64,000 nucleotides of DNA, taken from the IMG/VR virus record IMGVR_UViG_3300015371_000004, positions 51,950 through 115,949 of that record; one strand, written 5' to 3'. How positions within the stretch are numbered: position 1 is the stretch's first letter; every line of letters begins with the position of its first letter. Below, in pieces: positions 3,232 to 56,358 of the stretch. The stretch is from a virus. Both the position numbers and the translations under genes were made by a program. The notes under the pieces are model-generated. The model made no database searches and was not told where the DNA came from. It saw only the letters and a program-made list of their open reading frames with translations.

Positions 3232-3247
3232 GTTTGGTGTATTACCC

Positions 3248-3775
3248 CTAGTCCGAGGGCCACGGGGCACGCTCAAGTTCGTATTCTTCCCGGTCTCGCT
3301 CCAGACGCGACCGATGGATCCCCCGCCGATAGCTGGCTTTCGTCTTCCCGCTCCAGCGCCGATTCCGGTGTTCCGCGCGCGCCTGTTGGCGGTACTTGTC
3401 GAGCAGGTCCTTGCTCATCGGCTTCTCAGGCGTGCCGCGAGCCATCGCGTCCAGCGCTTCTGGAGACATCCCTTTGAGGGCCCTAATTCCATGCCGCTGA
3501 AGCGCGGCCAGCTGGGCCTTCAGGTCCGCGTAGATTTCCTGCTGATTTTGCTGCTTGCGCGCGGCCTGCCGCGCCATCTTCTCAGCCCTCCGCTGCTGAT
3601 GGGCAGCGCCGCGCTGCTGGCGCGCCGCGCGCGCCCGGTCCACCGCGCTCATCCCGGTCGACGCGCAGAACTGCCCGCCGCCCGGCCCGGACGGATTATG
3701 GCAGGGGTTGGCTTCGCTGAACGGACGTCCCTCGCTGGCGGGCCATAGTTCCCACATACTCATCCCTCTCGACAA
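3248..3775 (-). CDS. basic hypothetical protein with N-terminal EANPCH...GGQF tag
   Basis: ORF directly after terminase; Arg/Lys-rich. Confidence 0.7.
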   Translation of the reverse strand: MSRGMSMWELWPASEGRPFSEANPCHNPSGPGGGQFCASTGMSAVDRARAARQQRGAAHQQRRAEKMARQAARKQQNQQEIYADLKAQLAALQRHGIRALKGMSPEALDAMARGTPEKPMSKDLLDKYRQQARAEHRNRRWSGKTKASYRRGIHRSRLERDREEYELERAPWPSD

Positions 3776-3777
3776 GC

Positions 3778-4656
3778 TCAGTACGTCTCCCCCGGAGGTG
3801 GGGGGTCGAGCGGCCGATGCCGAATTCGCACCCCACGCCGCTTCACGTCGTCCACCCGCTGGCAGACGAAGTCAGTCGTGTCCCGGATGGTCGAGGTCAC
3901 GAGGAGCTTGTAGGCCCCCGGAAACCGCGTCGTCAGGGACTTCATCAAGCCCGTGTGGATCCCCGGCGCCAAGTCCGTCTCGCCCGCCAGCATGAAGGCG
4001 GCCTCGTCCATGACCCCCATCATCGTGTGATACCCAAAGACGGCCGTCGAGATACTCGACACCGAGAGCCCATAGATCCGCTTGGGGAAGCGGGCCTTGC
4101 GCGCCCCCGCCTTGAATCCCCGGCCGACAAACCATGGCGAGTGCTCGACGCGCGCCTTGAACTCGGTGAAGACGACGTCCGAGGCCTGATCCTTCGAGGA
4201 CGAAGCGTTCAAGACCGCAATGCGCGAATTCGGGCCCAGCATGTAGAAGAGGTCCGCCCGCCTGAGGCAGACGAGCTTGTAGATCGTCCGGGCCATGGCG
4301 CAGCCCGCGATGAAGCCCTTGCCAGAGCCCGAGCCCGCCAAGATGTCGACCTCCCGGACCTGCGGCAGGTCGAAGTAGATCATCAGGTCGACCTTGTCCT
4401 GATTGACCAGCCCTTTGAGGTTCAGGTACTTGGCGCCGAGCATGAACTCCTCGACGTCGACCGGGATCTCGTCGTAGATGAGTTCGTAGACGGCTTCGAG
4501 GCCGGAGAGGTCCCCGGCCTGCGCGCGCTTGAGCAGCCGGTAGATCGCGGTGCGATCCGAGGGCGTCAGCCGCCGGATCTCGTCGAAGGCGTCGAAGCGC
4601 TCCTCTTCAGTCGCGTCCGGCGGGAGAGTCGGGGTCGGATTGAGGGATCTTGGCAT
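3778..4656 (-). CDS. terminase large subunit, ATPase domain only
   Basis: IPVDVEEF..KYLNL N-terminus, AGSGSGKG Walker A, SKDQASDVVF, VMDEAAF Walker B, LLVTST motif III; no nuclease domain. Confidence 0.7.
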   Translation of the reverse strand: MPRSLNPTPTLPPDATEEERFDAFDEIRRLTPSDRTAIYRLLKRAQAGDLSGLEAVYELIYDEIPVDVEEFMLGAKYLNLKGLVNQDKVDLMIYFDLPQVREVDILAGSGSGKGFIAGCAMARTIYKLVCLRRADLFYMLGPNSRIAVLNASSSKDQASDVVFTEFKARVEHSPWFVGRGFKAGARKARFPKRIYGLSVSSISTAVFGYHTMMGVMDEAAFMLAGETDLAPGIHTGLMKSLTTRFPGAYKLLVTSTIRDTTDFVCQRVDDVKRRGVRIRHRPLDPPPPGETY

Positions 4657-5080
4657 CGGCCTGCGTGCGGGTGAACATCTCGATCACAGCCCGGGCACCC
4701 TGCACGGAGACCCCGGCTTCCTGCAGCTTCTCGGCCGCCGTCCGCGCGCGCTCGGCCTCAGCCTGATCCACGTCCTCGTCGAAGTCGACGTTCTTGGCCA
4801 TGCGCGAGAGGAGCGACATCTCGTTGTAGATTTTCGGGTCGACCTTGCCTTCGGCCCGCTCTCTGAGCACCATCACGGCCACCCGCCACCGCTGCACGTT
4901 GAAGGTCAGCCACGGGATCTTGGCAGGCGCGCCGGTCGTCAAGAGACCGAGCGCCTTGTCCATCTCGGCTTCGGCCTCCTGCAGCTTGCGCGACCCCTCC
5001 TCGTCAGAGGGTGGCGTAAGCGCCGACTCGTTCGCGTGCGGGAGATCCCGCTCGACGACGGTCGCAATGGACTCGCTCAT
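4607..5080 (-). CDS. hypothetical helical protein, possible terminase small subunit
   Basis: position immediately upstream of TerL ATPase; function inferred from synteny only. Confidence 0.45.
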   Translation of the reverse strand: MSESIATVVERDLPHANESALTPPSDEEGSRKLQEAEAEMDKALGLLTTGAPAKIPWLTFNVQRWRVAVMVLRERAEGKVDPKIYNEMSLLSRMAKNVDFDEDVDQAEAERARTAAEKLQEAGVSVQGARAVIEMFTRTQADAKIPQSDPDSPAGRD

Positions 5081-5639
5081 GTTTGGGTACCGGAACTTCG
5101 CACAAAATGGATCGGTGGGTCAACAGCCGCGCCAGCATCTCGGCGTAGCGCTTGGCGATCCGGCTCTCACTGGCGGCAAAGTACGTGGCGGCCTGCGCCA
5201 GATGCTGCCGGACCCGTGGCGACGGCAGCCCGACCCGCTTGGCCGTCTCGGCCTGCGAGGACGTCTGCGAGAACTCCGCCAGAATCTGGGGCATGTGCTC
5301 GGGCGCATCCGGCCAGACCCGGCCCAGATCTCGCCGGACCTCCCAGATCATGAGTCTCGGATGGTCAAGGAGAAACGCTAGCCGCTCGCAGGCGCGCTGC
5401 ATGCGATGGCTGACGGCTTGCTGGGTGAGGTGCAGGGCCTCCCCAATTTGGTCCTGATTTTTTCCGGCGAAGAAATGCAGCTCGATGACGTCACGCTCGA
5501 CTGGCGGGATGGTCTTGAGCAGGCGGCGGACTTGGAGGAGGCGCTCCGGGTTGTGCTCGTCGGCAGGCCGCACAAACTCGATCCATGACCGCAGGTGGAA
5601 GGTCTCGGGATCGATGTCGGTGAGGCTCAGCTCGCGCAT
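5004..5639 (-). CDS. sigma-70 region-4-like HTH protein with a second HTH
   Basis: IPPVERDVIELHFFAGKNQDQIGEALHLTQQAVSHRMQRACERL, plus SQAETAKRVGLPSPRVRQHL. Confidence 0.7.
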   Translation of the reverse strand: MRELSLTDIDPETFHLRSWIEFVRPADEHNPERLLQVRRLLKTIPPVERDVIELHFFAGKNQDQIGEALHLTQQAVSHRMQRACERLAFLLDHPRLMIWEVRRDLGRVWPDAPEHMPQILAEFSQTSSQAETAKRVGLPSPRVRQHLAQAATYFAASESRIAKRYAEMLARLLTHRSILCEVPVPKHERVHCDRRRAGSPARERVGAYATL

Positions 5640-5643
5640 CGGC

Positions 5644-5838
5644 TCACTGAATCGGGAGATGCTGGAGGAGCCACCACCCGTTTTCGGGTAGCTCGGGATG
5701 CTGCTTGAGGTGACGCTCAAGAAGATAGAAGCCAAGGTTCTTGGCCGCGCAGGGCGTTTCCCCTATCGTCTCGAACATCAGCTGCTGTCCCGTCCCCTCC
5801 GTGAAGATCGTTTGGTACTTCCGGACCGGTCGACTCAC
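5644..5838 (-). CDS. hypothetical protein
   Basis: fills gap between NusG-like and sigma-4-like genes with GTGA overlap. Confidence 0.5.
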   Translation of the reverse strand: MSRPVRKYQTIFTEGTGQQLMFETIGETPCAAKNLGFYLLERHLKQHPELPENGWWLLQHLPIQ

Positions 5839-6329
5839 ACCCGCTCCAGCTCGTACAACGCCGCTCGTACCGAGATGTGCCTAGAGTGTAACCGAATTTG
5901 GACATCGGCACGATTTTGCCGTTTGTCGACCCGCTGCACCTTCCCGGTCATGCCCGTCCATGCCCCCAAGAGGAGGCGCACTTTCGAGCCCCGCCGGAGG
6001 AGCCGCGGACGCACCGACCGCCGGACGTCCTTCATCTGGGTCGGCGACAGCCGTTCGAAGGCCTGCCCGTCCGAGGTTCGTACAAGTTTGTCCACAAAAC
6101 GCGACCGCTCGACGCGCTGCACGTGCGCGTCCGGGCTCACCTCAAGGAAGGCGTAGCCCCCGTAGGCGTGGGCCCATGCGATGGTACCGGTGCAAGTTTC
6201 CGCAGGAAAGAAGACGCGAACGCCCGGCAGGTACCGGGCGAAGTCTCTCTGGATGTCAGCCGTGGGGACGTCGGACACCGTGTCCGCCAGCATTGCAATC
6301 ACCCACTCGCTGGCCGCACGCTTTGCCAC
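5835..6329 (-). CDS. nusG: NusG-family transcription factor (NGN + KOW)
   Basis: VFFP...YGGYAFLE NGN-like region; GSKVRLLLGAWTGMTGKVQRVD KOW motif. Confidence 0.75.
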   Translation of the reverse strand: MAKRAASEWVIAMLADTVSDVPTADIQRDFARYLPGVRVFFPAETCTGTIAWAHAYGGYAFLEVSPDAHVQRVERSRFVDKLVRTSDGQAFERLSPTQMKDVRRSVRPRLLRRGSKVRLLLGAWTGMTGKVQRVDKRQNRADVQIRLHSRHISVRAALYELERV

Positions 6330-8369: not shown

Positions 8370-8392
8370 GGCGTCTCAGTGATACCCCAACC

Positions 8393-14126: not shown

Positions 14127-14176
14127 AGGGGAATTCTCCAGAAAATTTTGTGGGCCGAAGTTGGCCGTCGTGGCAG

Positions 14177-14593
14177 TTATACCCCGCGGCCCGGGTATTC
14201 TTTCGGCGGCCCAATGACCCCCGCCAGCCCGTCCTCGTAGTCCGTCTTGGGCTTGTAATTGTAGTCGTTGGCGTAGCCCATCACCCGCTTGAGAGCCGTC
14301 CCCATGACGTAGCTCACCCGCAGCCGCTCCCGCTTGACCTCGAAGAGTGCGCCGGTCGTCGGGTCCCGCCGCCGGGTCGCCGACAGCCGCTTGGTCCGGA
14401 GCGCGCCGAGGCCCGCCGGGAACTGGTACTTGCCCAGCTCGAACAACGACTTGAAGAGGCTCCGGATGACCACCATGTACAGTTCCTTCATCAGGTCCCG
14501 GCTCACGTGGTGCTGGTGCTTCTTGAGGTATTCCCGCGTGAGGGTCGCCATCTCGGCAAAGGCCTCTTCCTTGTAGTCCTTCTGATTCTTCAT
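14177..14593 (-). CDS. HU/IHF-family DNA-binding protein
   Basis: GLGALRTKRLSATRRRDPTTGALFEV...VSYVMGTALK beta-arm pattern. Confidence 0.7.
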   Translation of the reverse strand: MKNQKDYKEEAFAEMATLTREYLKKHQHHVSRDLMKELYMVVIRSLFKSLFELGKYQFPAGLGALRTKRLSATRRRDPTTGALFEVKRERLRVSYVMGTALKRVMGYANDYNYKPKTDYEDGLAGVIGPPKEYPGRGV

Positions 14594-14597
14594 CGGC

Positions 14598-15820: not shown

Positions 15821-17082
15821 GAGAGCAGCTGCTGGGCTTCCGGCCACAGCTCCACCTGACTCTCGGGCAGCGGCTGCACCGAGCCCCACGTCGACCCGGC
15901 GCTGACCGACCAGTGCATGGCCGCCCGCTCGCGCCAGCGCGCCACTGTCGGCGTCGTCACCAGCGTGGCGTGCAGCTCCCGTAGAAACCCCCGGACATCA
16001 GCGTCGACCGGCAGCTCGGCCGCGACGGCGTGCCGGGTCAGGATCATCCGGGCCCGCCACTGCTGGTCGAGCGCGCGCGCCAGCCACGCCAAGAGTTCGC
16101 CGGTCTCCTCGTAGACCCGCTGCTCCTGCGCTGGATACGCCGACAGCACGCCTTCATAGACCGAGGCCGACGGCAACCCCTGCGCCACTGCATACTCGTC
16201 CGGCGTGCTCCACGTGATCGGGTCCTCGTGAGCCGCCATGGCCGTCCGGACAAACGGCGTCGACAGGGAAAACTGGGCCCAAAATTTTCCGGACTCGGAT
16301 GGCACCGCGACTCGAAGTTCGGTCGGCAGCGTATTGAGCGCCGGGCCAGCCGCCGCAAAGGTCCAGTGCCGGTGGAACCGCCACACCGGGTTCAGGTAGA
16401 CGTAGATGCCATCCCGTTCCGACGAGGCCACGCTGGCTGCCAATCCCCCCGCGCGCTGCGCGCAGAGGTCAGCCCGGCGCCACTCCTCGTACGTCCTGAG
16501 CCAGACGGGATCTTGGCTCACGGTCTTCCACAGCTTCGACCGGCGCACCGCGCGCACCGCCACCGTCCCGAGCGCAGGCTTCAGGGCAGGCGTGAGCCGA
16601 TTGACGATCGCGACCTGCTCATCGACGACAGCCTTGTACTTGGCCTCATCGAACACGACACCGTGCCGATTGAGCGCCACCAGTACGGGCGCCACCACCG
16701 CATTTTCCACCGGGCGCGCCAAGGGCTGATCAACGAACATGGCTCGCTCGACCGCCGACTCCAGCGACGTCACATGCCAGTCCGCATCGACTCTCGCGAA
16801 CACCTGCTCGACGCTCAGGTCCTGCAGGTGGTCCCACGCGATCGACTGACGAATCCCCGGCTGCAACGTCCGCAGGACGTCGACCACGTCCCATGTCGAC
16901 ACGAGACCCCGATGCTCTGTGAGCACCGTCGCGCAGGCCATCCAGTCAGCCGACGTCCATTCCCGTGTGTCGCCGCCGTAGGCCTCGCCATCCCGGACTG
17001 CGACCAGATAGCCCGCCCCAGCAGCCAGACCCAGTCGGCCACCGATGCCCGTCAGCGCTTTCAGATCGTGGAAGGTCTTCAC
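15817..17082 (-). CDS. degenerate (apparently inactive) family-A DNA polymerase paralog
   Basis: PVLVALNRHGVVFD, GPALNTLP..LR, motif A position FSLSTPFVR, motif C position MILTRHAV, C-terminal SAGSTWG. Confidence 0.55.
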   Translation of the reverse strand: MKTFHDLKALTGIGGRLGLAAGAGYLVAVRDGEAYGGDTREWTSADWMACATVLTEHRGLVSTWDVVDVLRTLQPGIRQSIAWDHLQDLSVEQVFARVDADWHVTSLESAVERAMFVDQPLARPVENAVVAPVLVALNRHGVVFDEAKYKAVVDEQVAIVNRLTPALKPALGTVAVRAVRRSKLWKTVSQDPVWLRTYEEWRRADLCAQRAGGLAASVASSERDGIYVYLNPVWRFHRHWTFAAAGPALNTLPTELRVAVPSESGKFWAQFSLSTPFVRTAMAAHEDPITWSTPDEYAVAQGLPSASVYEGVLSAYPAQEQRVYEETGELLAWLARALDQQWRARMILTRHAVAAELPVDADVRGFLRELHATLVTTPTVARWRERAAMHWSVSAGSTWGSVQPLPESQVELWPEAQQLLS

Positions 17083-17579
17083 GCGAGCACCGGCTGAAGC
17101 GCGCCGAGCAGCGCCGCATGGTCCTTCTTCGTGATCCGGCCCGTCCGATCCACCCGCTCAATCACCGGGAGTAGCTCCGGCTTCGCCAGCAGGAACTCCC
17201 GCAGCTCACGGATGTAAAGGTCGTCGGCCTGCGTGGCGGCCTTCGCCGTCCGCGCGTCGAGCCGGTACTTGTTCTGCCACGGCCCGCCGCTGTCCACGCG
17301 GCTGTAGGCCCGATCGAGCTGGAGAGGATGCAACCGGCGGGAAGCAGCGCGATGTTTGTTCCGCGCGACACTTTGACACACGAGGTAGAGGTAGGACGTG
17401 AAGGCCGAGCGGTCCTTGGTGTAGCGGTCGAGCAGCCCGTACTTGTGCACGCGCAGGTAGACGTCCTGCACCATGTCATCAAGGTCCTCCTGCCCGATCG
17501 ACGTCACCGTCTTGAGGAAAGCCCGTATCTTGCCGTCGTAGCGCTCTACCAGTGCCTCTAGGGTCCGCGGTGCGTCCAT
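17079..17579 (-). CDS. ECF-like sigma factor, region 2 only
   Basis: LVERYDGKIRAF...DLDDMVQDVYLRV...SAFTSYLYLVCQSVARNKHR; no recognisable region-4 HTH. Confidence 0.75.
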   Translation of the reverse strand: MDAPRTLEALVERYDGKIRAFLKTVTSIGQEDLDDMVQDVYLRVHKYGLLDRYTKDRSAFTSYLYLVCQSVARNKHRAASRRLHPLQLDRAYSRVDSGGPWQNKYRLDARTAKAATQADDLYIRELREFLLAKPELLPVIERVDRTGRITKKDHAALLGALQPVLA

Positions 17580-17598: not shown

Positions 17599-17627
17599 TT
17601 AGACGTTGGGTTGGCCTAAATTGTTCC
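17599..17627 (-). promoter_or_regulatory. ECF-type promoter upstream of sigma-2 gene
   Basis: reverse complement GGAAC-N17-CGTCTAA, then AGGAG RBS. Confidence 0.75.
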
Positions 17628-19037: not shown

Positions 19038-19056
19038 CTCAGCCGGGTAATACCCC

Positions 19057-20219: not shown

Positions 20220-20648
20220 TCAAGCCTTCGGTCTTCGTCCGTTTGTTGCGCCCGACGCCACCAGCCCATCTCGTCCTCCCTCTGGTATTACCCCGTCGCG
20301 CCGGTCACGTGGGAGCAGGAACGGATAGCGGTCGCGTCGATTCTGGTCAGGCGTCCCCCAGTAGCCATGGAAGGGATTGACGCATTCCTCATTGTCGCAT
20401 TCGGGCAGGTGGCAGGCCTCGAAGCCGTTGTGGTCGTAGAGCGCGGTGTTGTCCCTGATGCAGAGGGCGACCCGGAAGGCCGGGACGATCAGCTGTTTCT
20501 TGGTGCCCGGGTCTCGGCAGATCCAGATCACCGGGCGCCTGTAGCCGCCGAGCTTGATCGACATGGCGCCGGTCCAGTCCCAGCAGCTGAACCAGTCGGT
20601 GATGACCACCTTGTCCCAGAACCTGCGGCGGAGCGGCTCGTCGATCAC
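20220..20648 (-). CDS. HNH endonuclease
   Basis: RFWDKV, CWDWTG, ACHLPECDNEECVNPFH.YWGT..QN. Confidence 0.75.
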   Translation of the reverse strand: MIDEPLRRRFWDKVVITDWFSCWDWTGAMSIKLGGYRRPVIWICRDPGTKKQLIVPAFRVALCIRDNTALYDHNGFEACHLPECDNEECVNPFHGYWGTPDQNRRDRYPFLLPRDRRDGVIPEGGRDGLVASGATNGRRPKA

Positions 20649-20927: not shown

Positions 20928-21310
20928 GCGGAGGTTATACCCCAGCCCTAAGGCCACGTGTAGGGAGTCTTCCAGACCTCCCTGATCATCGTCGCGACCC
21001 CACCTTCGACCGTGCCCGTCCGCCAGCCTTGCTCGACCAGCGACGCCCACTCAATCGAGTGGTAAATTGTCTTTCGATACTCGTAGCGTCGAAACATCAG
21101 GCTTCCTCCCATCCGCCAAGGACCACCCACTTGCCGGTCGCCAGCTCTCGGCCGTAGTGGAGACCTCGGTGATTCTTGTACTGGAAGATTCGGAACCGTC
21201 GGCCGTCCTTCTGAGCAACACCGTAGACGTAGCGCCCGGACTGGCCGTCGGTACTGCGGTGAAGCGCGTCCCTGATTCCGTAAAAGTTCGTCACCAACGC
21301 AACCCTCCCT

Positions 21311-22278: not shown

Positions 22279-22286
22279 ACGTGGTA

Positions 22287-23378
22287 CTACCCCGTCTCCA
22301 GCGTCTTCTTCCGGGCCTTGAGCCGGAAGCTCTTCCAGAGCCGCTTGTTGTGGATGACGAGCGCCGGGCCGCGCGCCGAGGCCACCAGCCGCGGCTCCCC
22401 CAGCTTGTTCGTGTCCCAGAGCCGGAACTCCGTGAAGAGCCCCCGGCGGACCACCCGCGGGACCACCTGCGAGACACCCCGATGAGCCTCCCGGATGTAG
22501 GGGTGCGGCGTGTAGCGCCCCTGCCGTGGGCCCGGCTTGAGCGCCCCCTGATCGGACAACCGGAGCGCCAGTTCCACCGAATTCGTCGCGTAGTCGGCGA
22601 TCACCCGGTAGCCCTTCTTCCGGAACCCTTCGAGCTTGTCCGTCAGCTTGTCGATGCTGCTGTCGCCCACGCCATCGAGCACGATGTCCTGCCCGTTGCT
22701 GAGCGCCTTCATGATCACCTTGAACGTGATGTCGCTGCTCTCCTCATGGCTGAGCGTCGAGGCCCGGTGGTCCCCGCCCAAGACCATCGCCTGATACTCC
22801 GGGATCCGCGCTTTGACCGCGTCCGGGTTGGCGTAGACCGCGAGGCCCGTCGGCGGGAACTTCACCAGCCCGGTATTGACCATGGTCGACTTGCCACTGG
22901 CCGGGCCGCCGCCCGTCATGTAGACCGTCTGGTTGGTGCTCTTCGGGATGCCGCGTGTCAGCTCGTCCACAATCCGGTCGTGGAGCTTCAGTCGCTCAGC
23001 CGTATAGACTCCGTCCTTCGAGTATATCTGCTTGGTGTCCGGCGGCAGCGCCTCGAAGTCCTCGCAGATCCCGGTGCCCTTCGGCGCGAACCGGCCGCCG
23101 ATGCCCGAGCCTGCGGGCTCATGGCAGCGGTTGAATTCCTGAAGACGCCGGGTCCAGTCCCGCCTCCGGCTGAGCAGGAAGTCAGCCCAGCTGACGTTTC
23201 CCGTCCGGCGTTTCCACTGCTGGAAATGGCTCTGCAGGACCTTGAGGACGCCAACCGCCGTGCCGCTGTCCGCCGGTCTTCCCCGATGGGAAGCGAAGCG
23301 GCCAAGCCGGTCGTGGTAGTGGTTGTACTCCCGGGTCCGCGGCAGCTCGGGCTCGGAATTCGAGGCGGGAACAATCAC
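22287..23378 (-). CDS. second zeta-toxin-family kinase with two peptide tags
   Basis: MTGGGPASGKST, NPDAVK, HEESS, VLDGVG, GYRV, LWDTN. Confidence 0.8.
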   Translation of the reverse strand: MIVPASNSEPELPRTREYNHYHDRLGRFASHRGRPADSGTAVGVLKVLQSHFQQWKRRTGNVSWADFLLSRRRDWTRRLQEFNRCHEPAGSGIGGRFAPKGTGICEDFEALPPDTKQIYSKDGVYTAERLKLHDRIVDELTRGIPKSTNQTVYMTGGGPASGKSTMVNTGLVKFPPTGLAVYANPDAVKARIPEYQAMVLGGDHRASTLSHEESSDITFKVIMKALSNGQDIVLDGVGDSSIDKLTDKLEGFRKKGYRVIADYATNSVELALRLSDQGALKPGPRQGRYTPHPYIREAHRGVSQVVPRVVRRGLFTEFRLWDTNKLGEPRLVASARGPALVIHNKRLWKSFRLKARKKTLETG

Positions 23379-30390: not shown

Positions 30391-30391
30391 G

Positions 30392-31490: not shown

Positions 31491-31721
31491 TTACCCCGAA
31501 TGCCGGTGGGGCGTCGAGACGACCCGCACGGTGCCCTGCGGCTGCCATTCGAGGACGGTGCCGCAGATGGTGCACTGCCAGCGCGCGCAGTCGCCATGGC
31601 CGTGCACCTCAAAGGTCGGGCTATGGGGGTAGAGCGTGCCTGCCGAGACGAGCGTCACACGCTCGACGCGGACCAGATCGGCATTGGCGCACATCGGACA
31701 GACCAGCGGTTCGTTGGCCAT
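31491..31721 (-). CDS. Zn-ribbon protein
   Basis: CPMC...CTIC. Confidence 0.55.
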   Translation of the reverse strand: MANEPLVCPMCANADLVRVERVTLVSAGTLYPHSPTFEVHGHGDCARWQCTICGTVLEWQPQGTVRVVSTPHRHSG

Positions 31722-33674: not shown

Positions 33675-34229
33675 CTAGGGCTGAGGTGACGAATCGCTGC
33701 TTGGTGAGTCGATCGAGACGCATGCTGCCCCCACGAGTGGCCAGCCCTGATCCTTCGTCGACAGGATCCGCGGGCGGCCGGGCCACTGAATCCCGATGGC
33801 CGGATCGTCCCACCTCAGGCCCGCTTCGGCCTCCGGCCGGTACGCGCCGGTGACGGTGTAGACCACGATCGTCCCCTCGCGCATCACGAAGTAGCCGTGC
33901 GCGCACCCTGCGGGCACGGCCAGCGCCCACGGGGACTGATCGCTCAGGTAATACCCCACCCAGCGCCGGAAGGTGTCACCGGGCCTCAGGTCCACGATCA
34001 CATCAAAGATTTCGCCCTTGATCACGCTGATGAGCTTGGCCTGCTCGTACGGCGGCTGCTGGTAGTGCAGGCCGCGAAGCGTCCCGTAGTACGGATTCTC
34101 GACGACGTTGACCTGCGTGACGGGGCTGATGGGGCTGACGGTCGAGAGCGCGCCGCGCACGTCCCGGAACGCGAATTTCGGGACGAGTTGCACGCCGGGC
34201 AGGTCTTCGAGTGGCAGACCGGATGCCAT
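33675..34229 (-). CDS. rmlC: dTDP-4-dehydrorhamnose 3,5-epimerase family (cupin)
   Basis: FRDVRG, GTLRGLHYQ, QAKLISVIKGEIFDVIVDLR, VPAGCAHGY, WDDPAIGIQWP, LSTKD. Confidence 0.9.
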   Translation of the reverse strand: MASGLPLEDLPGVQLVPKFAFRDVRGALSTVSPISPVTQVNVVENPYYGTLRGLHYQQPPYEQAKLISVIKGEIFDVIVDLRPGDTFRRWVGYYLSDQSPWALAVPAGCAHGYFVMREGTIVVYTVTGAYRPEAEAGLRWDDPAIGIQWPGRPRILSTKDQGWPLVGAACVSIDSPSSDSSPQP

Positions 34230-34884: not shown

Positions 34885-34933
34885 GTTATACCCCAACCCT
34901 GTGACCCAACCTGTCACGCGGCCGGGGTATAAC
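34885..34933. promoter_or_regulatory. back-to-back GGGGTATAAC elements at the strand switch
   Basis: GTTATACCCC at 34885-34894 (minus) and GGGGTATAAC at 34924-34933 (plus). Confidence 0.75.
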
Positions 34934-36521: not shown

Positions 36522-37183
36522 GGAGGATCCCATGTGTAAATGCGGATGCAACGTCGGGGATTGCTCATGCGACACGGGCGCGTACGCCTTTTTCCGGTGG
36601 GTGCAGGAGGAGTTTGCGGAGTGGGCCGCGAACCTGATCTTCTGGCACTGGCGCTGAGGGAAGCCATGGCTCGCGTACAGATTCACGTCGTCGATCGCTA
36701 TGCCAACGGGGCTGCCATCAATCGGGCCTACGATCAGGCCGCCACCGACTTTCAGCAGCGCGGTGGCGCCCATGTGACCCTCGATGAAGGCCTCATGACC
36801 GTGCGGGTCACGATCACCCCGGATATTGGCGACTGGGCGGCTATCCACCCTGATCGCAAAGGGGACTGGCCCACGATGCTTCGATGACCGCGCCACCCAA
36901 GCCGACGCCACCTCCGCTCCGAGAGCAGGCGGACTTCACAGTCAGCACGATCATCGGGCTCTGGTTCATCGTGGTCCTCTTAATCGTCGTCGGCGTCACC
37001 GTGGGTGCGCTGATCTGGCCGCGACCCGGGGTATAACCCTCCGCACGCCATGAATGTTCCGGTCAAGCGGTTACTTCGACGTAACTACAGGTGGCGTGTC
37101 AGGCACTACCAGTTCGTGGAAATGGGCCTGCTTTGGGCGTTTCTATCTAGCCTGATGGTGCTCGCATATTTTCTCGATGGCCG

Positions 37184-38938: not shown

Positions 38939-39518
38939 GTTCCGGGGCGGTCGGCCGGGACAGACGGCCGCGCAAGCGGGCTGGGAACTTCGGCGCGCAA
39001 GACGAACGGGCCGTCCCGGGTCAATGTAGCCGGGGGCGGCGATTGGGAGCGCTGGAGATTGCGGCTCGGCCGCCAATTCTGCGTTGGGGGAATACACGGT
39101 ATGGCAATCTGGTTGGTCCCAGTGACCGTGACTGAATACGGCCGCCGGGCAAGGGTTGAGGCGGACACCAAGGTCGAGGCGATCCGCAAGGCGCGCGCCG
39201 CCGACTGGGAAGAGCTGCTTGACGCGGAGCGCTACCGTGTCCGCATCGCAGGGCGAACCGAGCCGGAGTTTGTCGGCCACACGAAGCGAACCCCATGACC
39301 CACCTCGAAGCCTACGAGCGGGCCGCCAAGATTTGGGGCCATGACCGCATCCTGAACGTCCACGTGACGGTTGGGGGCGGGGCCGATGTCGAGCTGAAGC
39401 CGGGCATGTCGTGGGAGCCCGGGCCCAGCGTCCGGGGCCACCTCATGTGCTGGCACGTGCTCGACTCGAATGGGCACCCTGCCTGTCATGACGAATGCCG
39501 GAAGCTGGAGGGCTGACG

Positions 39519-40960: not shown

Positions 40961-41163
40961 GCGGCATGCTGACACTGGTCCTCGCGTGGGTGTGCGTGAT
41001 CTTCGCGTTGGTGATTGGCCTGCAGCAGGCGCTCGCCGCGCCGCGCAACAGCCCACAGCTCTGGTACGCGCTGGCCCTCATCACACTGGCCATCGCGATG
41101 ATCCTGACCACGAAGCTCTGGCCGCTGACCTCGTAAGGGGTATAACAGCCGCGGACGTTCCTT

Positions 41164-41751: not shown

Positions 41752-43235
41752 TGCAGCTGCCCGACGCCGTCCTTCGGAGCGTGCTCAGGCTCCCGGCCGA
41801 CGATGGGGCCGTCATCGAAGCCAACTTCGTCACCGTGCACGCCGCGGCCGACGAACTCCTCGATGCGGGGAGCATCGATCGGCAGCTCATCGAGTTCACC
41901 GCCGACGTCTTCCAACGGTCGAAGGGCTACCCGGACTACGCGCTGGTCTACGGCCACTTCCGGGGCAAGGCGGATCAAGGGGACGGCGTGGCCATGGCGG
42001 TCGCGACCCGGCTGGACCTCGTCACGGTCTCACCCCCGGCGCTGCTCCTCGGGGCCGCCCTCACGTATGCGCTCGATCAGTTTCGGGCGGACGTCTTCGG
42101 TCAAGCGCTTGGGCAGGCGCTCTTTCAGGCCAGCCAGATCCTCGGATCCGGGATCGATCAGACCGTCATGCACCACGGCCAGCGGATCACCCAGCGGCTG
42201 CAGGGACCGCAGCACGCCTACGATTTCCTGTCGAACGAGATGGGCCATCTGTCAAAAGTGACAGTCGGCGCGCCTGCCGAGGGGTCGCTCCATGAGGACA
42301 CCGAGGCAGTCTGGAAGCTCTACGAGTACCGGCGGGATCACCCGCTGGAGACCGGGATCCTCTCGGGGATCGACACAATCGACTCGGCCCACCATGGCCT
42401 CAGGCGCGGGGATCTGGCACTCGTCCTCGGGTTCACGGGGCACTTCAAGACCACGTTCACGATGAGCTGGGCCTACAAGGCGGCCATCCGGCAAGGCAAG
42501 CACGTCGCCGTCGTCTCGTGTGAGACGGCGCTCGATGATCTGCGCGCGATCTTCTACGTAATGCACGCGACCCATCCGAAGTTTCAGGATGACCCCAGCT
42601 ACCTGACCATCAGTGTGGACGCGGTGGTCCGGGGCACGCTGACCCGGGCGCAGGAGCGCTTCTTCAAGCACGTCATCGACGACCTGAAGACGAACACGAC
42701 GTACGGACGCGTGGTCTACCGGGAGCCCTCGGCCGACATGACGGTCGCCGACATCCAGCGCTGGGCCGAGGCGCGCAACCGCGAGACCGAGATCGCGCTC
42801 CTCCTCATCGACTACTTGGGGCTGGTCAAGCCCAGTGCCTCTCTGCGCGCCGCCGACACCGGCTCCCGGCTCAATGACGTGATTCGATCGTCCAAGCTCC
42901 TTGCCATGGGATTTGCCGCCGGGCGCGGGGTATCACTCCTCAGCCCGTTCCAAGCGAGTCGCGAGGGCTGGAAGAATGCGGAGAAGGTGGGCGGCAAGTA
43001 CCGGCTGAGCGATTTCTCGTGGGCGAACGAAGCCGAGAAGAGCGCCGACGTGATCTACTACGTCTGGCTCGACGATCTGCTCCGCAGCTCGAAGGAACTG
43101 GCGATTGGCAATCTGAAGACGCGGGTGGTGCCGATGATTCCCGATCAGTTTCGCATTTTCGTGGACCCGGTGACGCGCCTCGTCGACAATCTCGACCTGA
43201 CGTCGCCTGCGCAGGCACCCGTCGACATTTCGTGA
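41751..43235 (+). CDS. dnaB: DnaB-like replicative helicase
   Basis: SGIDTID...GLRRGDLALVLGFTGHFKTT, VSCE, LIDYLGLV, FQASR, EAEKSAD. Confidence 0.85.
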   Translation: MQLPDAVLRSVLRLPADDGAVIEANFVTVHAAADELLDAGSIDRQLIEFTADVFQRSKGYPDYALVYGHFRGKADQGDGVAMAVATRLDLVTVSPPALLLGAALTYALDQFRADVFGQALGQALFQASQILGSGIDQTVMHHGQRITQRLQGPQHAYDFLSNEMGHLSKVTVGAPAEGSLHEDTEAVWKLYEYRRDHPLETGILSGIDTIDSAHHGLRRGDLALVLGFTGHFKTTFTMSWAYKAAIRQGKHVAVVSCETALDDLRAIFYVMHATHPKFQDDPSYLTISVDAVVRGTLTRAQERFFKHVIDDLKTNTTYGRVVYREPSADMTVADIQRWAEARNRETEIALLLIDYLGLVKPSASLRAADTGSRLNDVIRSSKLLAMGFAAGRGVSLLSPFQASREGWKNAEKVGGKYRLSDFSWANEAEKSADVIYYVWLDDLLRSSKELAIGNLKTRVVPMIPDQFRIFVDPVTRLVDNLDLTSPAQAPVDIS

Positions 43236-44608: not shown

Positions 44609-46816
44609 GTGTTCACCGTTCTCACCGACGACCAGTCGTTTGTCGGCGGCGCGCGCTCGTGGATGGCCTCCACGGACTACCGGCTGGCCACGTCTCCCGA
44701 TGACCTCTGGAACTACGCCGATGGCTATCTGCAGCGGGGGATCTCCCCGGCCGCCGACTTCGAAGCCACCGGGCTGAACGTCTGGACCGACAAGATCGTC
44801 GGCATGTCCCTCAGCTTCGAGAAGGGGCACGGCATCTACGCGCCCTGCCGCCACTTCGAAGGCGCCGAGTACAACATCCCCGTCCCCACGCTCGTCGAGG
44901 TCATCGACGCGATCGACAAGCGCGCCGACGAGTGCTGGTGGTACCACAGCGACTTCGACCATGAGATGGCCCGGAACGACTGGCGGTGGCAGCCGACGTT
45001 TGGCAAGTGGCGGGACGCCATGATCGGCGTCTTTCTGGAGTTCCCGGACGCGCTGACCCACGGCCTCAAGGACACGGCGTACCGGCTGCTCGGCTGCGAG
45101 CTGATCGAGTATCTGGAGATCATCGGCTACGTCAAGCGCAAGGGGCAGCCGATCCCCGGGTTCGAACGGGTCCATCCAGTCGATGCCCCGTCCTATGCCT
45201 GCGCCGACAGCGACTTCACCCGGCGGCTGGCGCGGCTCTCCATCGTCCAGAAGGCGATCAAGGACCAGTCGCTCATCTGGGATCTGGAGCACAAGATCCT
45301 GCCGCCCATCCGCGCCGGGATCGACCATGGGGTCCCGACCGACGGGATCTACCTGACGCTGCTCTCGGCTGACGTGCGCCGTCAGCTGGCGATCCTCGAA
45401 CAGGAGGTCAAGGAGGCGCTGGGCGTCCCCACCGACTTCAACCTCCGGAGCCGGGAGAAGCTGGGCGACCGGCTCGAAGCCCTTGGCGTGCCGGTCGCCG
45501 AGCGGGTCACAAAGATCAACCCGCGGACGGGCGCCGGGTTCATGTCGACACGGAAGGCCACGCTCGACCTCCATGCGGACCGGTTCCCGTTCTGCGCGTC
45601 CCTCGTGAAGTACGCCGAGCTGGGCGCCGCCGAGCGCAATTACATCCGCAAGGCGATTGCCGCGCGCGACCACTTCGGCCCCAAAGTCCGGATTGCCTTC
45701 AACACCATCGGCGCGCCGACCGGGCGCATGTCCTCCGGGGGCGCGGGAAGGACGCAGGCCGAGGCGTTCTCGAAGGGGTACGCGAACCTCAACGGGCAGT
45801 CATGGCCGGACCCGGAGAAGAAGGACTACCTGCCGGACGTCCGGGCGGGGGTGAGCGTGGCCGCGCTCGACACCGACGAGTGGGTCATCGTCGCCATCGA
45901 CTACGAGCAGGTCGAGCTGCGGGTCCTCGCCAACGTCTCGGGCGAGGAGGTCTGGGCGGAGTCCTTCCGGAAGGGGATCGACATTCACCGGACGACGTAC
46001 GCCACGGCCCACAATGTCCCGGTCGCGACGGTCGACAAGCCGAAGCGCAAGAAGGGCAAGACGCTCTCCTTCGCGATCGTCTATCAGGCCACCCCGAAGA
46101 CGGTCGCCAAGCAGGCCGGGATCCCGGAGGCCGAGGCCGACCGGCTCATCAAGGCCGTGCTCGACCGCTGCCCGCGCCTGAAGAAGTGGGTCCTCGCCAC
46201 CAAGGCCCATGCGGCGGCCTACGGGTTCGTCCAGACGTTCTTTGGCCGTCGGCGCGTGCTCAAGCATTACTTCGGGGGCGACTACTCCACCAAGGCCGCG
46301 AGGAAGCTGAAGGCGCAGGGGGAGCGTGAAGGCGTGAACGCGCCGATCCAAGGGGGAGCGGCCGACGTCTTCAAGATTGCCGTCTACAAGGTCGCCAAGC
46401 TCCTGCAGGGCCTACGTGCGGAGGAGGACTGGATCCCGATCATGTGGGTGCACGATGAGACGGTCTCCCTTGTCCGCCGGAGCCGCCTGTACGAGCTGCT
46501 GCCCAAGGTGGTCGAGACGATGGAGTTCAAGGTCAAGGGCTGGACCGTTCCCCTGAAGGTGGTGCCCGAAGTGGGCTGGAACTGGGGGCTGGACGACCGG
46601 CGCAACCGGGGCGCAGGGCTCCTCTCGTGGGGAACATGGTGCCAGCGGTACCCACCGGAGACGGCCTCGACGCCCTTGGTCTGCTGGCTGCCCGCCTCAG
46701 CCTACCCGGCGCCGCCGCCAGCCCCAGCTCCGGAGCCCGAGGACGAGACGCTCGACGATCTGCTCGATGAGGACCTCGACGACATCACCGATGCGCTCGA
46801 TGGGGACTCGGGGTAA
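44609..46816 (+). CDS. polA: family-A DNA polymerase with 3'-5' exonuclease
   Basis: DFEATG ExoI, YACAD ExoIII, TGRMSS, IDYEQVELR motif A, KTLSFAIVY motif B, NAPIQG, WVHDE motif C. Confidence 0.92.
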   Translation: MFTVLTDDQSFVGGARSWMASTDYRLATSPDDLWNYADGYLQRGISPAADFEATGLNVWTDKIVGMSLSFEKGHGIYAPCRHFEGAEYNIPVPTLVEVIDAIDKRADECWWYHSDFDHEMARNDWRWQPTFGKWRDAMIGVFLEFPDALTHGLKDTAYRLLGCELIEYLEIIGYVKRKGQPIPGFERVHPVDAPSYACADSDFTRRLARLSIVQKAIKDQSLIWDLEHKILPPIRAGIDHGVPTDGIYLTLLSADVRRQLAILEQEVKEALGVPTDFNLRSREKLGDRLEALGVPVAERVTKINPRTGAGFMSTRKATLDLHADRFPFCASLVKYAELGAAERNYIRKAIAARDHFGPKVRIAFNTIGAPTGRMSSGGAGRTQAEAFSKGYANLNGQSWPDPEKKDYLPDVRAGVSVAALDTDEWVIVAIDYEQVELRVLANVSGEEVWAESFRKGIDIHRTTYATAHNVPVATVDKPKRKKGKTLSFAIVYQATPKTVAKQAGIPEAEADRLIKAVLDRCPRLKKWVLATKAHAAAYGFVQTFFGRRRVLKHYFGGDYSTKAARKLKAQGEREGVNAPIQGGAADVFKIAVYKVAKLLQGLRAEEDWIPIMWVHDETVSLVRRSRLYELLPKVVETMEFKVKGWTVPLKVVPEVGWNWGLDDRRNRGAGLLSWGTWCQRYPPETASTPLVCWLPASAYPAPPPAPAPEPEDETLDDLLDEDLDDITDALDGDSG

Positions 46817-46831
46817 TACTCAGGCGGCACA

Positions 46832-55033: not shown

Positions 55034-55340
55034 ACGGGGGTATAACCGAATCGTGAGCCAAGCCATCCAGTCGTCGTTTGTCTGCACCAAGCCGGGCCGG
55101 TACGTCGTCAAGGCGACGCGGACGGACACGACGGACCTGCTCAGCGTCTACGTCGATCGGGTCAAGAAGCTCTGGACCGACGACCCAGTCAACCAGCAGG
55201 TGACCGGGACGCTCAAGCTCAGCACCCATGACGTGGTCGAATCGACCGGCACGCTCACCATCGAGCGCATCGTGGACGAACTCGCCGAGTGAATCTGCTA
55301 CAGTAGAGCACCGAATTTCCCCTTGAAGGAGGGATCCACC

Positions 55341-55667
55341 ATGCCGCTCGCGCTAGCCTGCTCGAATGAAGAGAAAATCAAAGTCACCGCCAGCCCCACG
55401 ACCCCCGGTGGCAATCCGGCAACCCTCGACGGCGGCCTACAGGCGGAGGTGATCTCCGGCGACGGCACGGTCGAGCCCGATCCGTCTGACCCGAACTCGT
55501 TTTTCGCGGTGAGCGGTGTCGCGCTTGGCATCACTGAGTTTCGGGTCCATGGTGACGCGGACCTCGGCAGCGGCGTCGTGGAAATTCAGGACATCGTGAC
55601 GCTGACGGTCGGCGGTGCCATGGCGGCCAACTTTGGCCTGACGGCCTCGGCGCCGATCCCGAAGTAG
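55341..55667 (+). CDS. small beta-rich (Ig-like) protein
   Basis: GGAGG RBS; beta-strand pattern, DADLG. Confidence 0.55.
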   Translation: MPLALACSNEEKIKVTASPTTPGGNPATLDGGLQAEVISGDGTVEPDPSDPNSFFAVSGVALGITEFRVHGDADLGSGVVEIQDIVTLTVGGAMAANFGLTASAPIPK

Positions 55668-55674
55668 GGACATC

Positions 55675-56031
55675 ATGAGCAAAGTCGACGAGGCCATCGC
55701 CGAGATCGATCAGGCGCTGGCCGACATGGCCCCCGCGCATGAAGGGCTGAACGACTACAGCGCCTTGGACATCAAGCCGGAGACCAAGGCACAGGTCGAC
55801 GCGGCCATTGCGCTCTACGACACGCGGAAAACCAAGCTCGAAGCGGCGCGCGAGGGTCTCGTGAGTCTGGTCGGGAACGGGTACCCGGTCTTGGAGATCC
55901 CGGACGTGAGCGCTTCGGTCTTGGCCGACCTCCAAGAGAACGCGGCGACCATCGAGGCGGCGCTGGCGAAGTTCTCCTCGAACGCGCCGACATCCCTCGG
56001 ACTATCGGGAGCACCGCCGGTCCCGAAGTAG
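55675..56031 (+). CDS. hypothetical helical protein
   Basis: ORF; C-terminus (LGLSGAPPVPK) resembles that of the upstream gene (FGLTASAPIPK). Confidence 0.6.
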   Translation: MSKVDEAIAEIDQALADMAPAHEGLNDYSALDIKPETKAQVDAAIALYDTRKTKLEAAREGLVSLVGNGYPVLEIPDVSASVLADLQENAATIEAALAKFSSNAPTSLGLSGAPPVPK

Positions 56032-56358
56032 GTTCCCGTGGCTGTCGTCGTCATCGCCCCGTGCGGCTGCTCGTTGATCAAGGTCAAGGCCGGGCTGTGT
56101 GACAGTTATGGCCCGGCCGACGTCCCGGCCCTCGAACGGGGGGAATTCCCGCCCAGCCGGGACGAGCTGCCGACGGCCCCGATGTCGACCCTCCGTGAGC
56201 TGCTCCGCTGCCCGGCCTGCCGCCAGCACTTCGACGAACAGATCTGTCTGGCGGCCGATGACCTCTCCATGGTCCTGTCCGAGGACCAGATCGCCGCCGC
56301 CAAGCACCTGCTCCAGAAGCACCACGCCAAGCACGGCTGACCGGGGTATAACCCCGGT

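Follow-up and report, generated by a model that had tools for sequence, protein, structure and literature searches.

A repeated GGGGTAWWAC element at gene boundaries of an uncultured phage as a probable -10-type promoter

Results

Genes and features of the locus

The window analysed here comprises 64,000 nucleotides of a 116-kb contig (estimated completeness, 76%) from an uncultured phage with a GC content of 65%. Two short sequence elements recur in it. The first, class A, is a 10-base word with the consensus GGGGTAWWAC(Y), present in approximately 20 copies, and the second, class B, reads GGAACYTTT...GTCTAA and has about ten copies in the contig. Their copies in the window are listed below together with neighbouring genes, and distances are given from the end of the motif.

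140, plus strand: class B copy
3239..3248, minus strand: class A GGGGTAATAC; ATG 3231 after 7 nt, no Shine-Dalgarno sequence (SD); in-frame TTG 3276 upstream
5004..5735, minus strand: gene of a 243-aa protein; residues 60-125 form a sigma70 region-4 domain, and another, weak HTH is present; upstream of an ORF labelled terminase ATPase half in the initial annotation
5835..6329, minus strand: NusG-like candidate, 164 aa, KOW-like motif near the C-terminus
8379..8388, minus strand: class A GGGGTATCAC; ATG 8369 after 9 nt, first start of the frame; the operon behind it holds the SbcC C-half, primase Toprim, NusG-like and sigma4 genes
14176..14185, minus strand: class A GGGGTATAAC; its TAA ends gene 14177-14713; leader of 49 nt with SD to ATG 14126, then the RecA operon
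17079..17579, minus strand: gene of the 166-aa phage sigma, in which a sigmaE-like sigma2 domain is joined by a disordered linker to a small three-helix C-terminal domain
17600..17627, minus strand: class B promoter of the sigmaE type, GGAAC-N17-GTCTAA, immediately in front of the sigma gene
19047..19056, minus strand: class A GGGGTATTAC; abuts a TGA stop; GTG 19037 after 9 nt, first start of the frame; the operon behind it extends towards the sigma gene
20285..20294, minus strand: class A GGGGTAATAC; 15-nt leader, GGGAGG SD, ATG 20269
20934..20943, minus strand: class A GGGGTATAAC; GTG 20927 after 6 nt
22047, minus strand: class B copy
22284..22293, minus strand: class A GGGGTAGTAC; its TAG ends the Zeta-like kinase gene 22287-23378; ATG 22278 after 5 nt opens a 61-codon gene, followed by a class B promoter
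25369, minus strand: class B copy
27317, minus strand: class B copy
29167..29176, minus strand: class A GGGGTAACAC; SD-bearing leader to ATG 29120
31488..31497, minus strand: class A GGGGTAATAC; its TAA ends gene 31491-31721; leader of 29-44 nt, GGGAGG
33948..33957, minus strand: intragenic class A copy within an RmlC-like gene, coding for G-Y-Y; probably background
34885..34894, minus strand: class A, leftward element of a divergent pair; 18-nt leader, GGGAGG, ATG 34866 (weak RelA/SpoT-like match)
34901..34917, no strand: palindrome GTGAC-N7-GTCAC midway between the divergent class A elements; candidate operator
34924..34933, plus strand: class A, rightward element of the pair; ATG after 4 nt; 22-codon ORF 34938-35006, overlapping a 376-aa phrog_1362 gene at its start (34994)
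37028..37037, plus strand: class A; ATG after 12 nt; 45-codon ORF 37050-37187, with an ATGA overlap with the SNF2 helicase gene 37184-38938
39086..39095, plus strand: class A variant GGGGGAATAC; ATG 39101 after 5 nt
41137..41146, plus strand: class A; abuts a TAA stop; frame 41146-41751 downstream, then DnaB; the frame has no ATG, GTG or TTG before 41407, and has an in-frame ACG 8 nt and CTG 17 nt past the motif
42927..42936, plus strand: intragenic class A copy within dnaB; probably background
46810..46819, plus strand: class A; its TAA ends the PolA gene; ATG 46832 after 12 nt
55037..55046, plus strand: class A behind a radical-SAM gene; GTG 55053 after 6 nt, first start of the frame
56343..56352, plus strand: class A; ATG 56359 after 6 nt, first start of the frame

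Enrichment and conservation of the class A motif

All 17 gene-boundary sites of the initial annotation, as well as its two intragenic copies (33948 and 42927), were found at the coordinates and on the strands given there, and the proposed enrichment over shuffled sequence was confirmed. Exact matches to GGGGTANNAC numbered 18 in the window, where dinucleotide shuffles predicted 0.88 and gave at most 5. The whole contig contained 23 matches, against 1.9 expected and a maximum of 6 in third-order Markov simulations. Class A was on the strand of the local gene direction in 22 of the 23 contig copies (binomial p = 6e-6).

The motif tolerated very few changes when each position was relaxed in turn. 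The final C was invariant in the contig (23/23), and GGGGTANNA followed by A, G or T did not occur at all. The sole substitute tolerated at position 1 was C, and these variants were mostly partly palindromic sites read in reverse, or coding GGG-TAT-TAC. Only four gene-boundary sites (8379, 22284, 29167 and 39086) were one departure away from GGGGTAWWAC. The number of copies thus fell steeply from exact to one-mismatch matches, as expected if the binding energy of a promoter sits in one element. Positions 2-7 read GGGTAW at all sites, with A at position 6 in 20 of 20, and the AT-rich TAWWA core stands out in a genome of 65% GC.

No -35 element was found at a fixed position, in agreement with the earlier observation; upstream columns of the aligned class A sites never exceeded 0.45 bit. 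Words containing GGCC showed a marginal excess upstream, at variable distance. Promoters of the sigma70 type, with -35 and -10, were not above chance in the 40 kb of the window scanned for them.

Placement relative to genes and start codons

Nearly all class A copies fill a gap of 15-25 nt between the stop codon of one gene and the start codon of the next. As already noted in the initial annotation, the TAA or TAG within the motif doubles as the stop of the upstream gene at 14177, 22287, 31491 and 46814. A start codon follows 5-9 nt after the motif at nine sites, comprising the eight reported earlier in the window (3231, 8369, 19037, 20927, 22278, 39101, 55053 and 56359) and one at contig position 17472. 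In six of these cases, i.e., 8369, 19037, 22278, 55053, 56359 and contig 17472, a start further upstream is impossible, the codon being the first start of the open frame. An SD at the usual spacing of this genome, 5-8 nt, was absent from all nine. Six further class A sites have leaders of 12-20 nt, four of them with a GGAGG-like SD.

The back-to-back pair of class A elements, 34885 on the minus strand and 34924 on the plus strand, lies exactly at the strand switch, as had been described. The gap between them is 29 bp, and class A is the only repeated element at this place, where two promoters must exist.

Genes behind class A belong to replication, recombination, nucleotide and sugar metabolism, or are small accessory genes. 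In the head module the element does not precede the genes for the TerL nuclease half, portal, protease or major head protein. Approximately 33 kb of structural genes contained just one sense intragenic and one antisense copy.

The phage sigma factor and class B promoters

The nearest relatives of the phage sigma are E. coli sigmaE and AlgU, and T4 gp55 gave a weak fold match at rank 38. Its C-terminal domain consists of 49 residues in three helices, which align loosely with sigma4 of compact ECF sigmas. Class B was found upstream of the head-gene operon as well as of the sigma gene. Since both of these sit behind class B, this class is more likely than class A to be the natural regulon of the phage sigma. 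The tandem order class A, 61-codon gene, class B, next gene suggests that the two signals are used separately. The NusG-like candidate (5835-6329) was assigned by language-model similarity only, and Pfam finds no domain in its 164 residues.

Discussion

A compact -10-type promoter

We consider class A to be best read as a -10-type core promoter, which probably gives rise to leaderless or short-leader mRNAs. This part of the initial proposal is supported by the orientation of the copies, their placement between stop and start codons, the SD-less starts at 5-9 nt and the divergent pair. Within the motif, the G tract would serve RNA polymerase holoenzyme as an extended -10, and TAWWAC would be the hexamer that melts. 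The element would be self-sufficient; as the DNA in front of it belongs to the 3' end of the previous gene, contact with a -35 is not expected. Transcription would begin about 5-9 nt past the motif, where nine of the sites have their start codon; -10 elements and transcription starts are usually this far apart. At about half of the sites, transcripts would begin with the A or G of their start codon and hence be leaderless or nearly so. The remaining sites would have leaders of 12-50 nt, with an SD in most but not all, and two of them would open with a small ORF near the motif. The approximately 20 copies would in this manner split two divergent gene arrays into short units.

A middle or late timing had been suggested for these promoters. 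The element precedes replication, recombination and accessory genes and not head genes, which makes an early or middle class more plausible than a late one. Several observations speak against the promoter reading, among them the C at the end of the hexamer, discussed below. The SD at short-leader sites starts just 4-10 nt past the motif, leaving little space for a start site upstream of it. The gene at 41146-41751 has no canonical start codon. Class A was absent from the loci compared in the fetched PolA relatives, which share at most 34% identity.

The factor that reads class A is somewhat more probably one other than the sigmaE-like sigma of the phage, since the latter has a better-matching promoter class in class B. 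Candidates are a sigma of the host, which a phage protein may have remodelled, and a phage factor that escaped recognition; with an estimated 76% of the genome in the contig, the missing part could also hold the gene of another polymerase or sigma. Ordinary sigmaA on an ordinary -10 cannot be the reader, because the hexamer ends in C and housekeeping sigmas strongly prefer T at -7.

Alternative readings

It is rather unlikely, though worth weighing, that class A is the promoter of the phage's own small sigma (17079-17579), used without a -35 in the way of T4 gp55. The reduced C-terminal domain would then be unable to hold a -35 element, and a host RpoE-like sigma would read class B and thereby turn the phage sigma on. 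To our knowledge, ECF sigmas normally require both -35 and -10. The replacement of a full sigma4 by a three-helix domain of 49 residues is in line with such a reader, as are the weak fold match to gp55 and the exactness of the motif, which fits a dedicated factor. Furthermore, the class A core GGTAWWA resembles a GTA-type ECF -10 and has G-T-x-T-A-A in common with the class B -10, CGTCTAA, and PDB entry 5or5 is an engineered sigmaE region 2 bound to GTAAAA. However, class B directly upstream of the sigma gene is the usual layout of ECF autoregulation, and the closest relatives, sigmaE and AlgU, read promoters of the type GGAACTT/GTC (PMC6648896). With class B at the head-gene operon, the structural genes would moreover hang on a host stress sigma, and class A is missing from late genes, unlike the late promoters of T4. 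The initial assignment of class A to the sigma-2 protein of the phage is therefore not supported, this 166-aa protein being sigmaE-like with its own gene behind class B.

We regard it as improbable that class A is a stoperator-like or operator site, at which a phage regulator blocks or tunes transcription. Stoperators of cluster A mycobacteriophages (L5 gp71 sites) are 13-bp, asymmetric, numerous, intergenic and oriented with transcription. About 20 asymmetric copies of class A in short intergenic gaps, co-oriented with transcription, resemble them, and the phage encodes HTH proteins. Five or six sites reach a partial dyad, GGGTA-N-TACCC, but conservation of its right half is limited to A and C. 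Stoperators would be expected over all operons including structural ones, since silencing should cover structural genes too, whereas the 33-kb structural operon here holds only one sense intragenic and one antisense copy. The tight spacing of 5-9 nt to SD-less starts would play no part, and neither an integrase, an immunity repressor nor other lysogeny genes were found among the approximately 75 proteins scanned, a subset of the ORFs of an incomplete contig.

A slightly smaller chance is given to class A as an ops-like site in the non-template strand that loads the NusG paralogue (5835-6329) onto elongating RNAP. Termination would then be suppressed along the long arrays, and ribosomes would be helped onto SD-less genes, as proposed for RfaH. 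The ops sequence is GGCGGTAGnnTG; a G-rich run and GGTA are common to it and class A. The strand specificity of the element, the genes without SD behind it and the presence of a candidate NusG-like gene also agree, and RfaH is reported to bind the non-template strand (bioRxiv 10.1101/264887). Against this, an ops site would be expected in a transcribed leader downstream of a promoter, and the elements at the strand switch are 29 bp apart with no space for upstream promoters. Consensus pause sites have G+1, whereas position +11 of class A is never G (0/20). The ops sites known so far are found in long leaders, one to an operon, rather than 5-9 nt ahead of starts, and the NusG assignment itself comes from language-model similarity without a Pfam match. 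Equally slight is the chance of a hand-over site, at which the NusG paralogue would couple the first ribosome to the polymerase before SD-less starts. If true, it would be a phage-wide, RfaH-like replacement for Shine-Dalgarno initiation; a -10-only promoter read by an ECF-type sigma may be a second unusual reading.

An RNA-level signal, either a long-spaced SD substitute or a nuclease site that trims mRNAs to leaderless ones, is very improbable. The element is on the coding strand, always just 5' of start codons, and GGGGU could form five pairs with the CCUCC region, one of which is G-U. However, 11-15 nt separate the end of the G tract from the start codon, against 5-8 nt for clear SDs in this genome, a separate GGAGG-like SD follows the motif at four sites, and the invariant TA..AC is left without explanation. 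In the candidate host-phylum genomes checked, the reversed control is also commoner than the motif.

Comparison with known systems

Class A has its nearest parallels in the -10-only, leaderless promoter classes of Thermus phages, in T4 late promoters and in the GGGTAT -10 of SigB/SigF sigmas. The late promoters of T4, TATAAATA, are a -10-only class with many repeats, read by gp55 together with gp33 and the sliding clamp. The analogy with them, drawn in the initial annotation, holds for the architecture of the -10-type promoter preferred here, i.e., a -10-only phage class repeated many times, but not for sequence, timing or factor. T4 late promoters have another sequence, drive virion genes, which class A does not do in the head module, and their mRNAs are not typically leaderless. 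Their reader is a sigma2-only protein, whereas the phage sigma described here is ECF-like, carries a C-terminal domain and probably reads a -35/-10 class of its own.

Compared with the housekeeping sigma70/sigmaA hexamer TANNNT, class A has the second-position A (-11) at 20 of 20 sites, but C in place of the final T (-7) in 23 of 23 copies. There is no -35 hexamer 16-18 bp upstream, and GGGG stands where TGn would be expected. Promoters of the ECF sigmaE type are matched by class B; the class A core shares part of their -10, as given above, but has A in place of the C of GTC and no AAC-type -35. SigB/SigF-type (group 3) promoters have the form GTTTAA-N12-14-GGG(A/T)A(A/T), for instance with GGGTAT or GGGTAC (PMC8346170; PMC6849360; PMC2532724). 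Class A positions 2-7 match this -10 with the near-invariant GGG and the A at its fifth position. The invariant A-C after the hexamer is outside that consensus, and a GTTT-type -35 is lacking 12-17 bp upstream or at any fixed distance. Genes for a SigB-type sigma or partner switching were not seen in the phage.

Class-specific -10-only promoters reportedly give leaderless transcripts in the Thermus phage phiYS40. In Thermus phage Lalka27a, 16 late promoters share a single conserved -10 without a -35; transcription starts 6 bp downstream of it, most of the mRNAs are leaderless, and a divergent pair occurs among these promoters (bioRxiv 10.64898/2026.04.20.719267). In Deinococcus-Thermus, an ORF-adjacent -10 element drives leaderless genes (PMC12340547). 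Thermus-phage elements obey TANNNT and mark late genes, and that of Lalka27a (TAGGGT) also has a conserved C at -25, whereas class A has an invariant final C, GGGG in front, and replication and accessory genes rather than head genes behind it. Start sites have been mapped in the Thermus phages and are predicted for class A from the spacing to start codons. The likeness consists of many copies of a sharp -10-type element without -35, a start codon about 6 nt downstream and opposed copies in a divergent intergenic region. The design is thus already known from other phages; the sequence GGGGTAWWAC itself is new.

Distribution and consensus of the class A motif

The class A motif, a putative -10-only promoter element, was counted as the exact word GGGGTANNAC. 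All its coordinates in the initial annotation were correct, and the enrichment over chance which that annotation had left to be checked was found both in the window (18 copies vs 0.88 expected) and in the whole contig (23 copies vs 1.9 expected under a third-order Markov model). Of these 23 copies, 22 were aligned with the local genes (p = 6e-6). Relaxation of single positions showed that the word is sharp: the final C was never replaced, and the sole common variant, C at position 1, came mostly from partly palindromic sites read in reverse or from coding GGG-TAT-TAC. Hardly any one-mismatch copies were located at gene boundaries. The consensus from 20 sites was GGGGTAWWAC followed by C, T or A, never by G; four probable background copies were omitted from it, i.e., two intragenic copies in the window, one inside the portal gene and one antisense copy. 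As in the initial annotation, no conserved -35 was seen, since no upstream column exceeded 0.45 bit, and a -35 at a fixed distance is thereby excluded. A word-based upstream search revealed nothing beyond a marginal excess of GGCC, whose distance varied. A full-text literature search for the 9-10-mers returned nothing relevant.

Placement of class A around genes

The element is found in the 15-25 nt that separate a stop codon from the following start. The stop of the preceding gene is placed 0-7 nt ahead of the motif or within it, the latter at 14177, 22287, 31491 and 46814, exactly the sites where the motif had been noted to supply the stop. Sites were grouped by the distance to the following start codon.

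Class A sites by distance to the next start codon (window coordinates unless marked contig)
Start 5-9 nt past the motif, nine sites: starts at 3231, 8369, 19037, 20927, 22278, 39101, 55053, 56359 and contig 17472
Leader of 12-20 nt, six sites: 20285, 34885, 37028, 46810, contig 11780 and contig 13533
More distant start, five sites: 14176, 29167, 31488, 34924 and 41137

Eight of the close starts had been listed initially and were found as described, contig 17472 being the ninth. Six of the nine are the first start of the open frame. The distance from the end of the G tract to the start codon at these nine sites was 11-15 nt, compared with 5-8 nt for the clear SDs in this genome. A clear GGAGG-like SD was present at three of the six short-leader sites (20285, 34885 and contig 13533), and at 14176, 29167 and 31488 an SD-containing leader of about 30-50 nt preceded the gene. 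At 34924, an ATG 4 nt downstream starts a 22-codon ORF (34938-35006, +), which overlaps the start of the main gene, and at 37028 an ATG 12 nt downstream starts a 45-codon ORF (37050-37187, +) with an ATGA junction to the SNF2 helicase gene; both small frames may be coupling ORFs. The gene after 41137, frame 41146-41751 (+), had no ATG, GTG or TTG before codon 88. The frame is clearly coding (GC3 0.91, Cys-rich N-terminus), is divided from the upstream gene by two in-frame TAA stops, and has an in-frame ACG 8 nt and an in-frame CTG 17 nt past the motif.

The back-to-back pair 34885 (-)/34924 (+), which had been taken to mark the change of strand, is 29 bp apart and coincides exactly with the strand switch. 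Precisely between the divergent GGGGTATAAC elements is a GTGAC-N7-GTCAC palindrome (window 34901-34917), a candidate operator for both directions.

Gene content and organization

The source contig is a linear viral sequence of 115,949 bp from IMG/VR with a CheckV completeness of 76%, i.e., about a quarter of the genome is absent; the lineage is uncultured, with a size of about 150 kb. The window covers bases 51950-115949 of this contig, and its GC content was 65%. Gene starts were called by us from GC3 and ORF lists, with no trained gene finder. Rightward genes occupy window 34.9-57.6 kb, and leftward genes extend from about 34.9 kb through the remainder of the contig, broken by two small rightward islands.

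Gene content
Window, replication and repair: PolA, DnaB, CHC2 zinc-finger protein, Toprim primase core, SNF2 helicase, RecA, Mre11, split SbcC, UDG
Window, other enzymes: PD-(D/E)XK nuclease, Zeta-like kinase, RmlC-like epimerase, radical-SAM/B12 enzyme, methyltransferases
Window, transcription proteins: one sigma70 region-2 protein, one sigma70 region-4 protein
Immediately left of the window, (-), head module: weak TerL nuclease-half match, portal, protease, major head protein

The window contained no tRNAs, and no DxDGD-type catalytic motif of a phage RNA polymerase was found within any plausible ORF. An 848-aa ORF (57932-60478, -) was rejected as a polymerase, being a repeat protein with many repeats of roughly 40-50 aa and a recurring FKSPLPMAAAP..LSW.P.YPD; Pfam gave no match for it, and a role as fibre or surface protein is possible. 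A candidate replication origin is a non-coding stretch of 737 bp (window 29655-30391), which is of lower GC, contains short direct repeats, e.g., GGGAACAAGWATWCGGG twice, 21 nt apart, and coincides with the change of GC-skew sign at about 30 kb. The ORF at 3778-4656 (-), initially called the ATPase half of the terminase, had no PHROG match, while an ORF at contig 50239-51117 (-), 4.6 kb further downstream and past a rightward gene island, matched the nuclease part of large terminases weakly. A TerL split over these two ORFs is possible but unproven. Window 33675-34304 (-), 49561-51077 (+) and 53414-55033 (+) encode an RmlC-like dTDP-sugar epimerase, a methyltransferase, a weak glycosyltransferase match and the radical-SAM/B12 enzyme; jointly these could make up a pathway for sugar or DNA modification. 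Of the intrinsic-terminator-like hairpins in the window, the strongest (53063-53100, +) has a 16-bp stem and then a T run, and it ends a rightward unit ahead of the radical-SAM/B12 gene, upstream of which neither a class A nor a class B element was found.

Class B promoters and the phage sigma factor

The second promoter class, class B, comprises about 10 highly conserved copies of GGAACYTTT, a spacer of about 17 nt in total and ACGTCTAAATA. A strong SD (GGAGG) comes next in nearly all copies, and a TTACA-N4-TGTAA palindrome lies just upstream in most. The cassette matches the sigmaE-type promoter, GGAACTT/GTC (PMC6648896).

Class B copies
Window: 140-167 (+), 17600-17627 (-), 22047-22074 (-), 25369-25396 (-), 27317-27344 (-)
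Contig: 14501 (-), 14571 (+), 15094 (+), 51858 (-), 51906 (+)

The copy at 17600-17627 is directly upstream of the gene for the 166-aa phage sigma (17079-17579, -), which is the usual layout of ECF autoregulation, and the copy at contig 51858 (-) heads the leftward run of TerL nuclease half, portal, protease and major head protein. By sequence profile the sigma was closest to E. coli sigmaE and AlgU, and its sigma2 fold superposed on sigmaE region 2 with 1.8 A over 77 residues. In the model, a confident sigma2 domain is joined by a disordered linker to a C-terminal domain of three helices (residues 117-165, pLDDT about 83). Since this C-terminal domain gives a loose alignment with sigma4 of compact ECF sigmas, the modelled protein is probably a complete mini-ECF sigma and not sigma2-only. 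Its short family had only four members among 1.8 billion representative proteins. The other transcription protein, of 243 aa (5004-5735, -), carries a sigma70 region-4 domain and a second weak HTH with no region 2, and gave a weak ArpU match (E = 0.005). It is encoded two genes upstream of ORF 3778-4656, a position typical of RinA/ArpU-type late activators.

Relatives and host

Scans of IMG/VR with single proteins and alignments (sigma, DnaB, PolA) gave loci with at most 34% PolA identity and without the motif, and the JGI metagenomes, scanned with the sigma alignment, contained a single distant fragment, in which the motif was absent. The IMG/VR DNA scan for the back-to-back pair produced two low-GC matches, which were rejected as chance. 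GTDB searched with PolA yielded cellular polA genes that showed no enrichment of the motif, the best match, at about 30% identity, being from Chloroflexota. Among cultured phages there was no blastn match, and tblastn identity of PolA was at most 28%. Closer relatives were found only as proteins from Logan assemblies (P0002, 63%; P0003, 49%; and P0124). Homologues of the RmlC-like protein were taxonomically scattered. In five Chloroflexota or Actinomycetota genomes the motif was rarer than its own reversed control.

Discussion

The best reading of class A, as judged from sequence, is a -10-type core promoter from which transcription would begin at or just before the start codon. Several features argue for it: the motif is strand-specific, it marks junctions without translational coupling, it carries an AT-rich TAWWA core in a GC-rich genome, and its gap to the SD-less starts is the usual gap between a -10 and the transcription start. 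Furthermore, it is the sole repeated element at the place where two divergent promoters must exist, and sigma70-type -35/-10 promoters were no more frequent than chance over 40 kb of the window.

The initial annotation had placed class A in the middle or late period and assigned its recognition to the phage sigma. This assignment was not upheld, as it is class B that adjoins the sigma gene and the head operon. In the simplest cascade compatible with the motif positions, class A promoters would express the replication and accessory genes, the sigma gene would be expressed by read-through from the class A site at 19047, and the phage sigma would then drive class B, and with it the head operon, several cassettes of small genes and the sigma gene itself. 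On this scheme class A would belong to the early or middle period, and it would be read by a host sigma, either as such or retuned by a phage protein, or by an unrecognised phage factor. Unmodified sigmaA is disfavoured because of the invariant C where housekeeping sigmas want T. That the phage's own sigma reads class A seems to us unlikely, even though the cores of the two classes have G-T-x-T-A-A in common and PDB entry 5or5 is, by its title, an engineered sigmaE region 2 bound to GTAAAA.

Other functions were also considered for the motif. Stoperator-like regulator sites would resemble class A in copy number, asymmetry, orientation and intergenic position; however, no lysogeny genes were found among about 75 proteins scanned, the structural operon lacks class A, and this reading gives no role to the fixed spacing to the start codon. 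An ops-like loading site for a phage NusG-like protein would account for both the strand specificity and the SD-less genes. The candidate gene (5835-6329, -) lies between the primase core and the 243-aa protein and encodes 164 aa with a KOW-like motif near the C-terminus; language-model similarity to viral NusG-like clusters was 0.91-0.93, Pfam gave no detection, and the single-sequence fold (mean pLDDT 38) was unusable. Against such a loading site, upstream promoters would have no space at the divergent pair, and the G of the consensus pause site never occurs at position +11. An SD-like or RNA-processing signal leaves the invariant TA..AC unaccounted for, and the G tract is too distant from the start codon. 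Restriction or methylation targets (expected to show no orientation bias, and avoidance rather than enrichment), replication iterons or a pac site (not expected over 100 kb), a terminator (no hairpin) and a consensus pause site (+11 never G) were all rejected.

If the promoter reading of class A is true, one lineage has two sharply defined and unrelated promoter classes which differ also in translation start, class A being -10-only and often leaderless, and class B being of -35/-10 type with a strong SD and tied to the phage mini-ECF sigma. Such a simple two-step cascade could be rebuilt in vitro. The reader of G4-TAWWAC, with C where T is near-universal, would not be obvious, and its identity would reveal a host sigma whose specificity is unusual, retuning of sigma by a phage factor, or an ECF sigma independent of a -35. 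Both motifs permit operon-level annotation of this phage genome and its relatives.

Mycobacteria translate leaderless transcripts whose first codon is ATG or GTG. Leaderless transcripts are described as common in mycobacteria (PMC4633059). The class A layout has direct precedents: in Deinococcus-Thermus a -10 element adjoining the ORFs drives leaderless genes (PMC12340547), and in Thermus phage Lalka27a, 16 late promoters share one conserved -10 (TAGGGT) and lack a -35; their start sites lie 6 bp downstream, the mRNAs are mostly leaderless, and a divergent pair is present. The authors of the Lalka27a work also report leaderless transcripts of phage YS40. The nearest known -10 by sequence is GGGTAT or GGGTAC of SigB/SigF-type sigmas, whose promoters have a GTTT -35, unlike class A. 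A phage-specific -10-only design in many copies is known from Thermus phages and T4, and class A would be alike; the architecture is thus not categorically new and the advance is modest. What is new is the combination of G4 with TAWWAC and its last C, the proposed use at non-late genes, and the pairing with a sigmaE-type class and a mini-ECF sigma.
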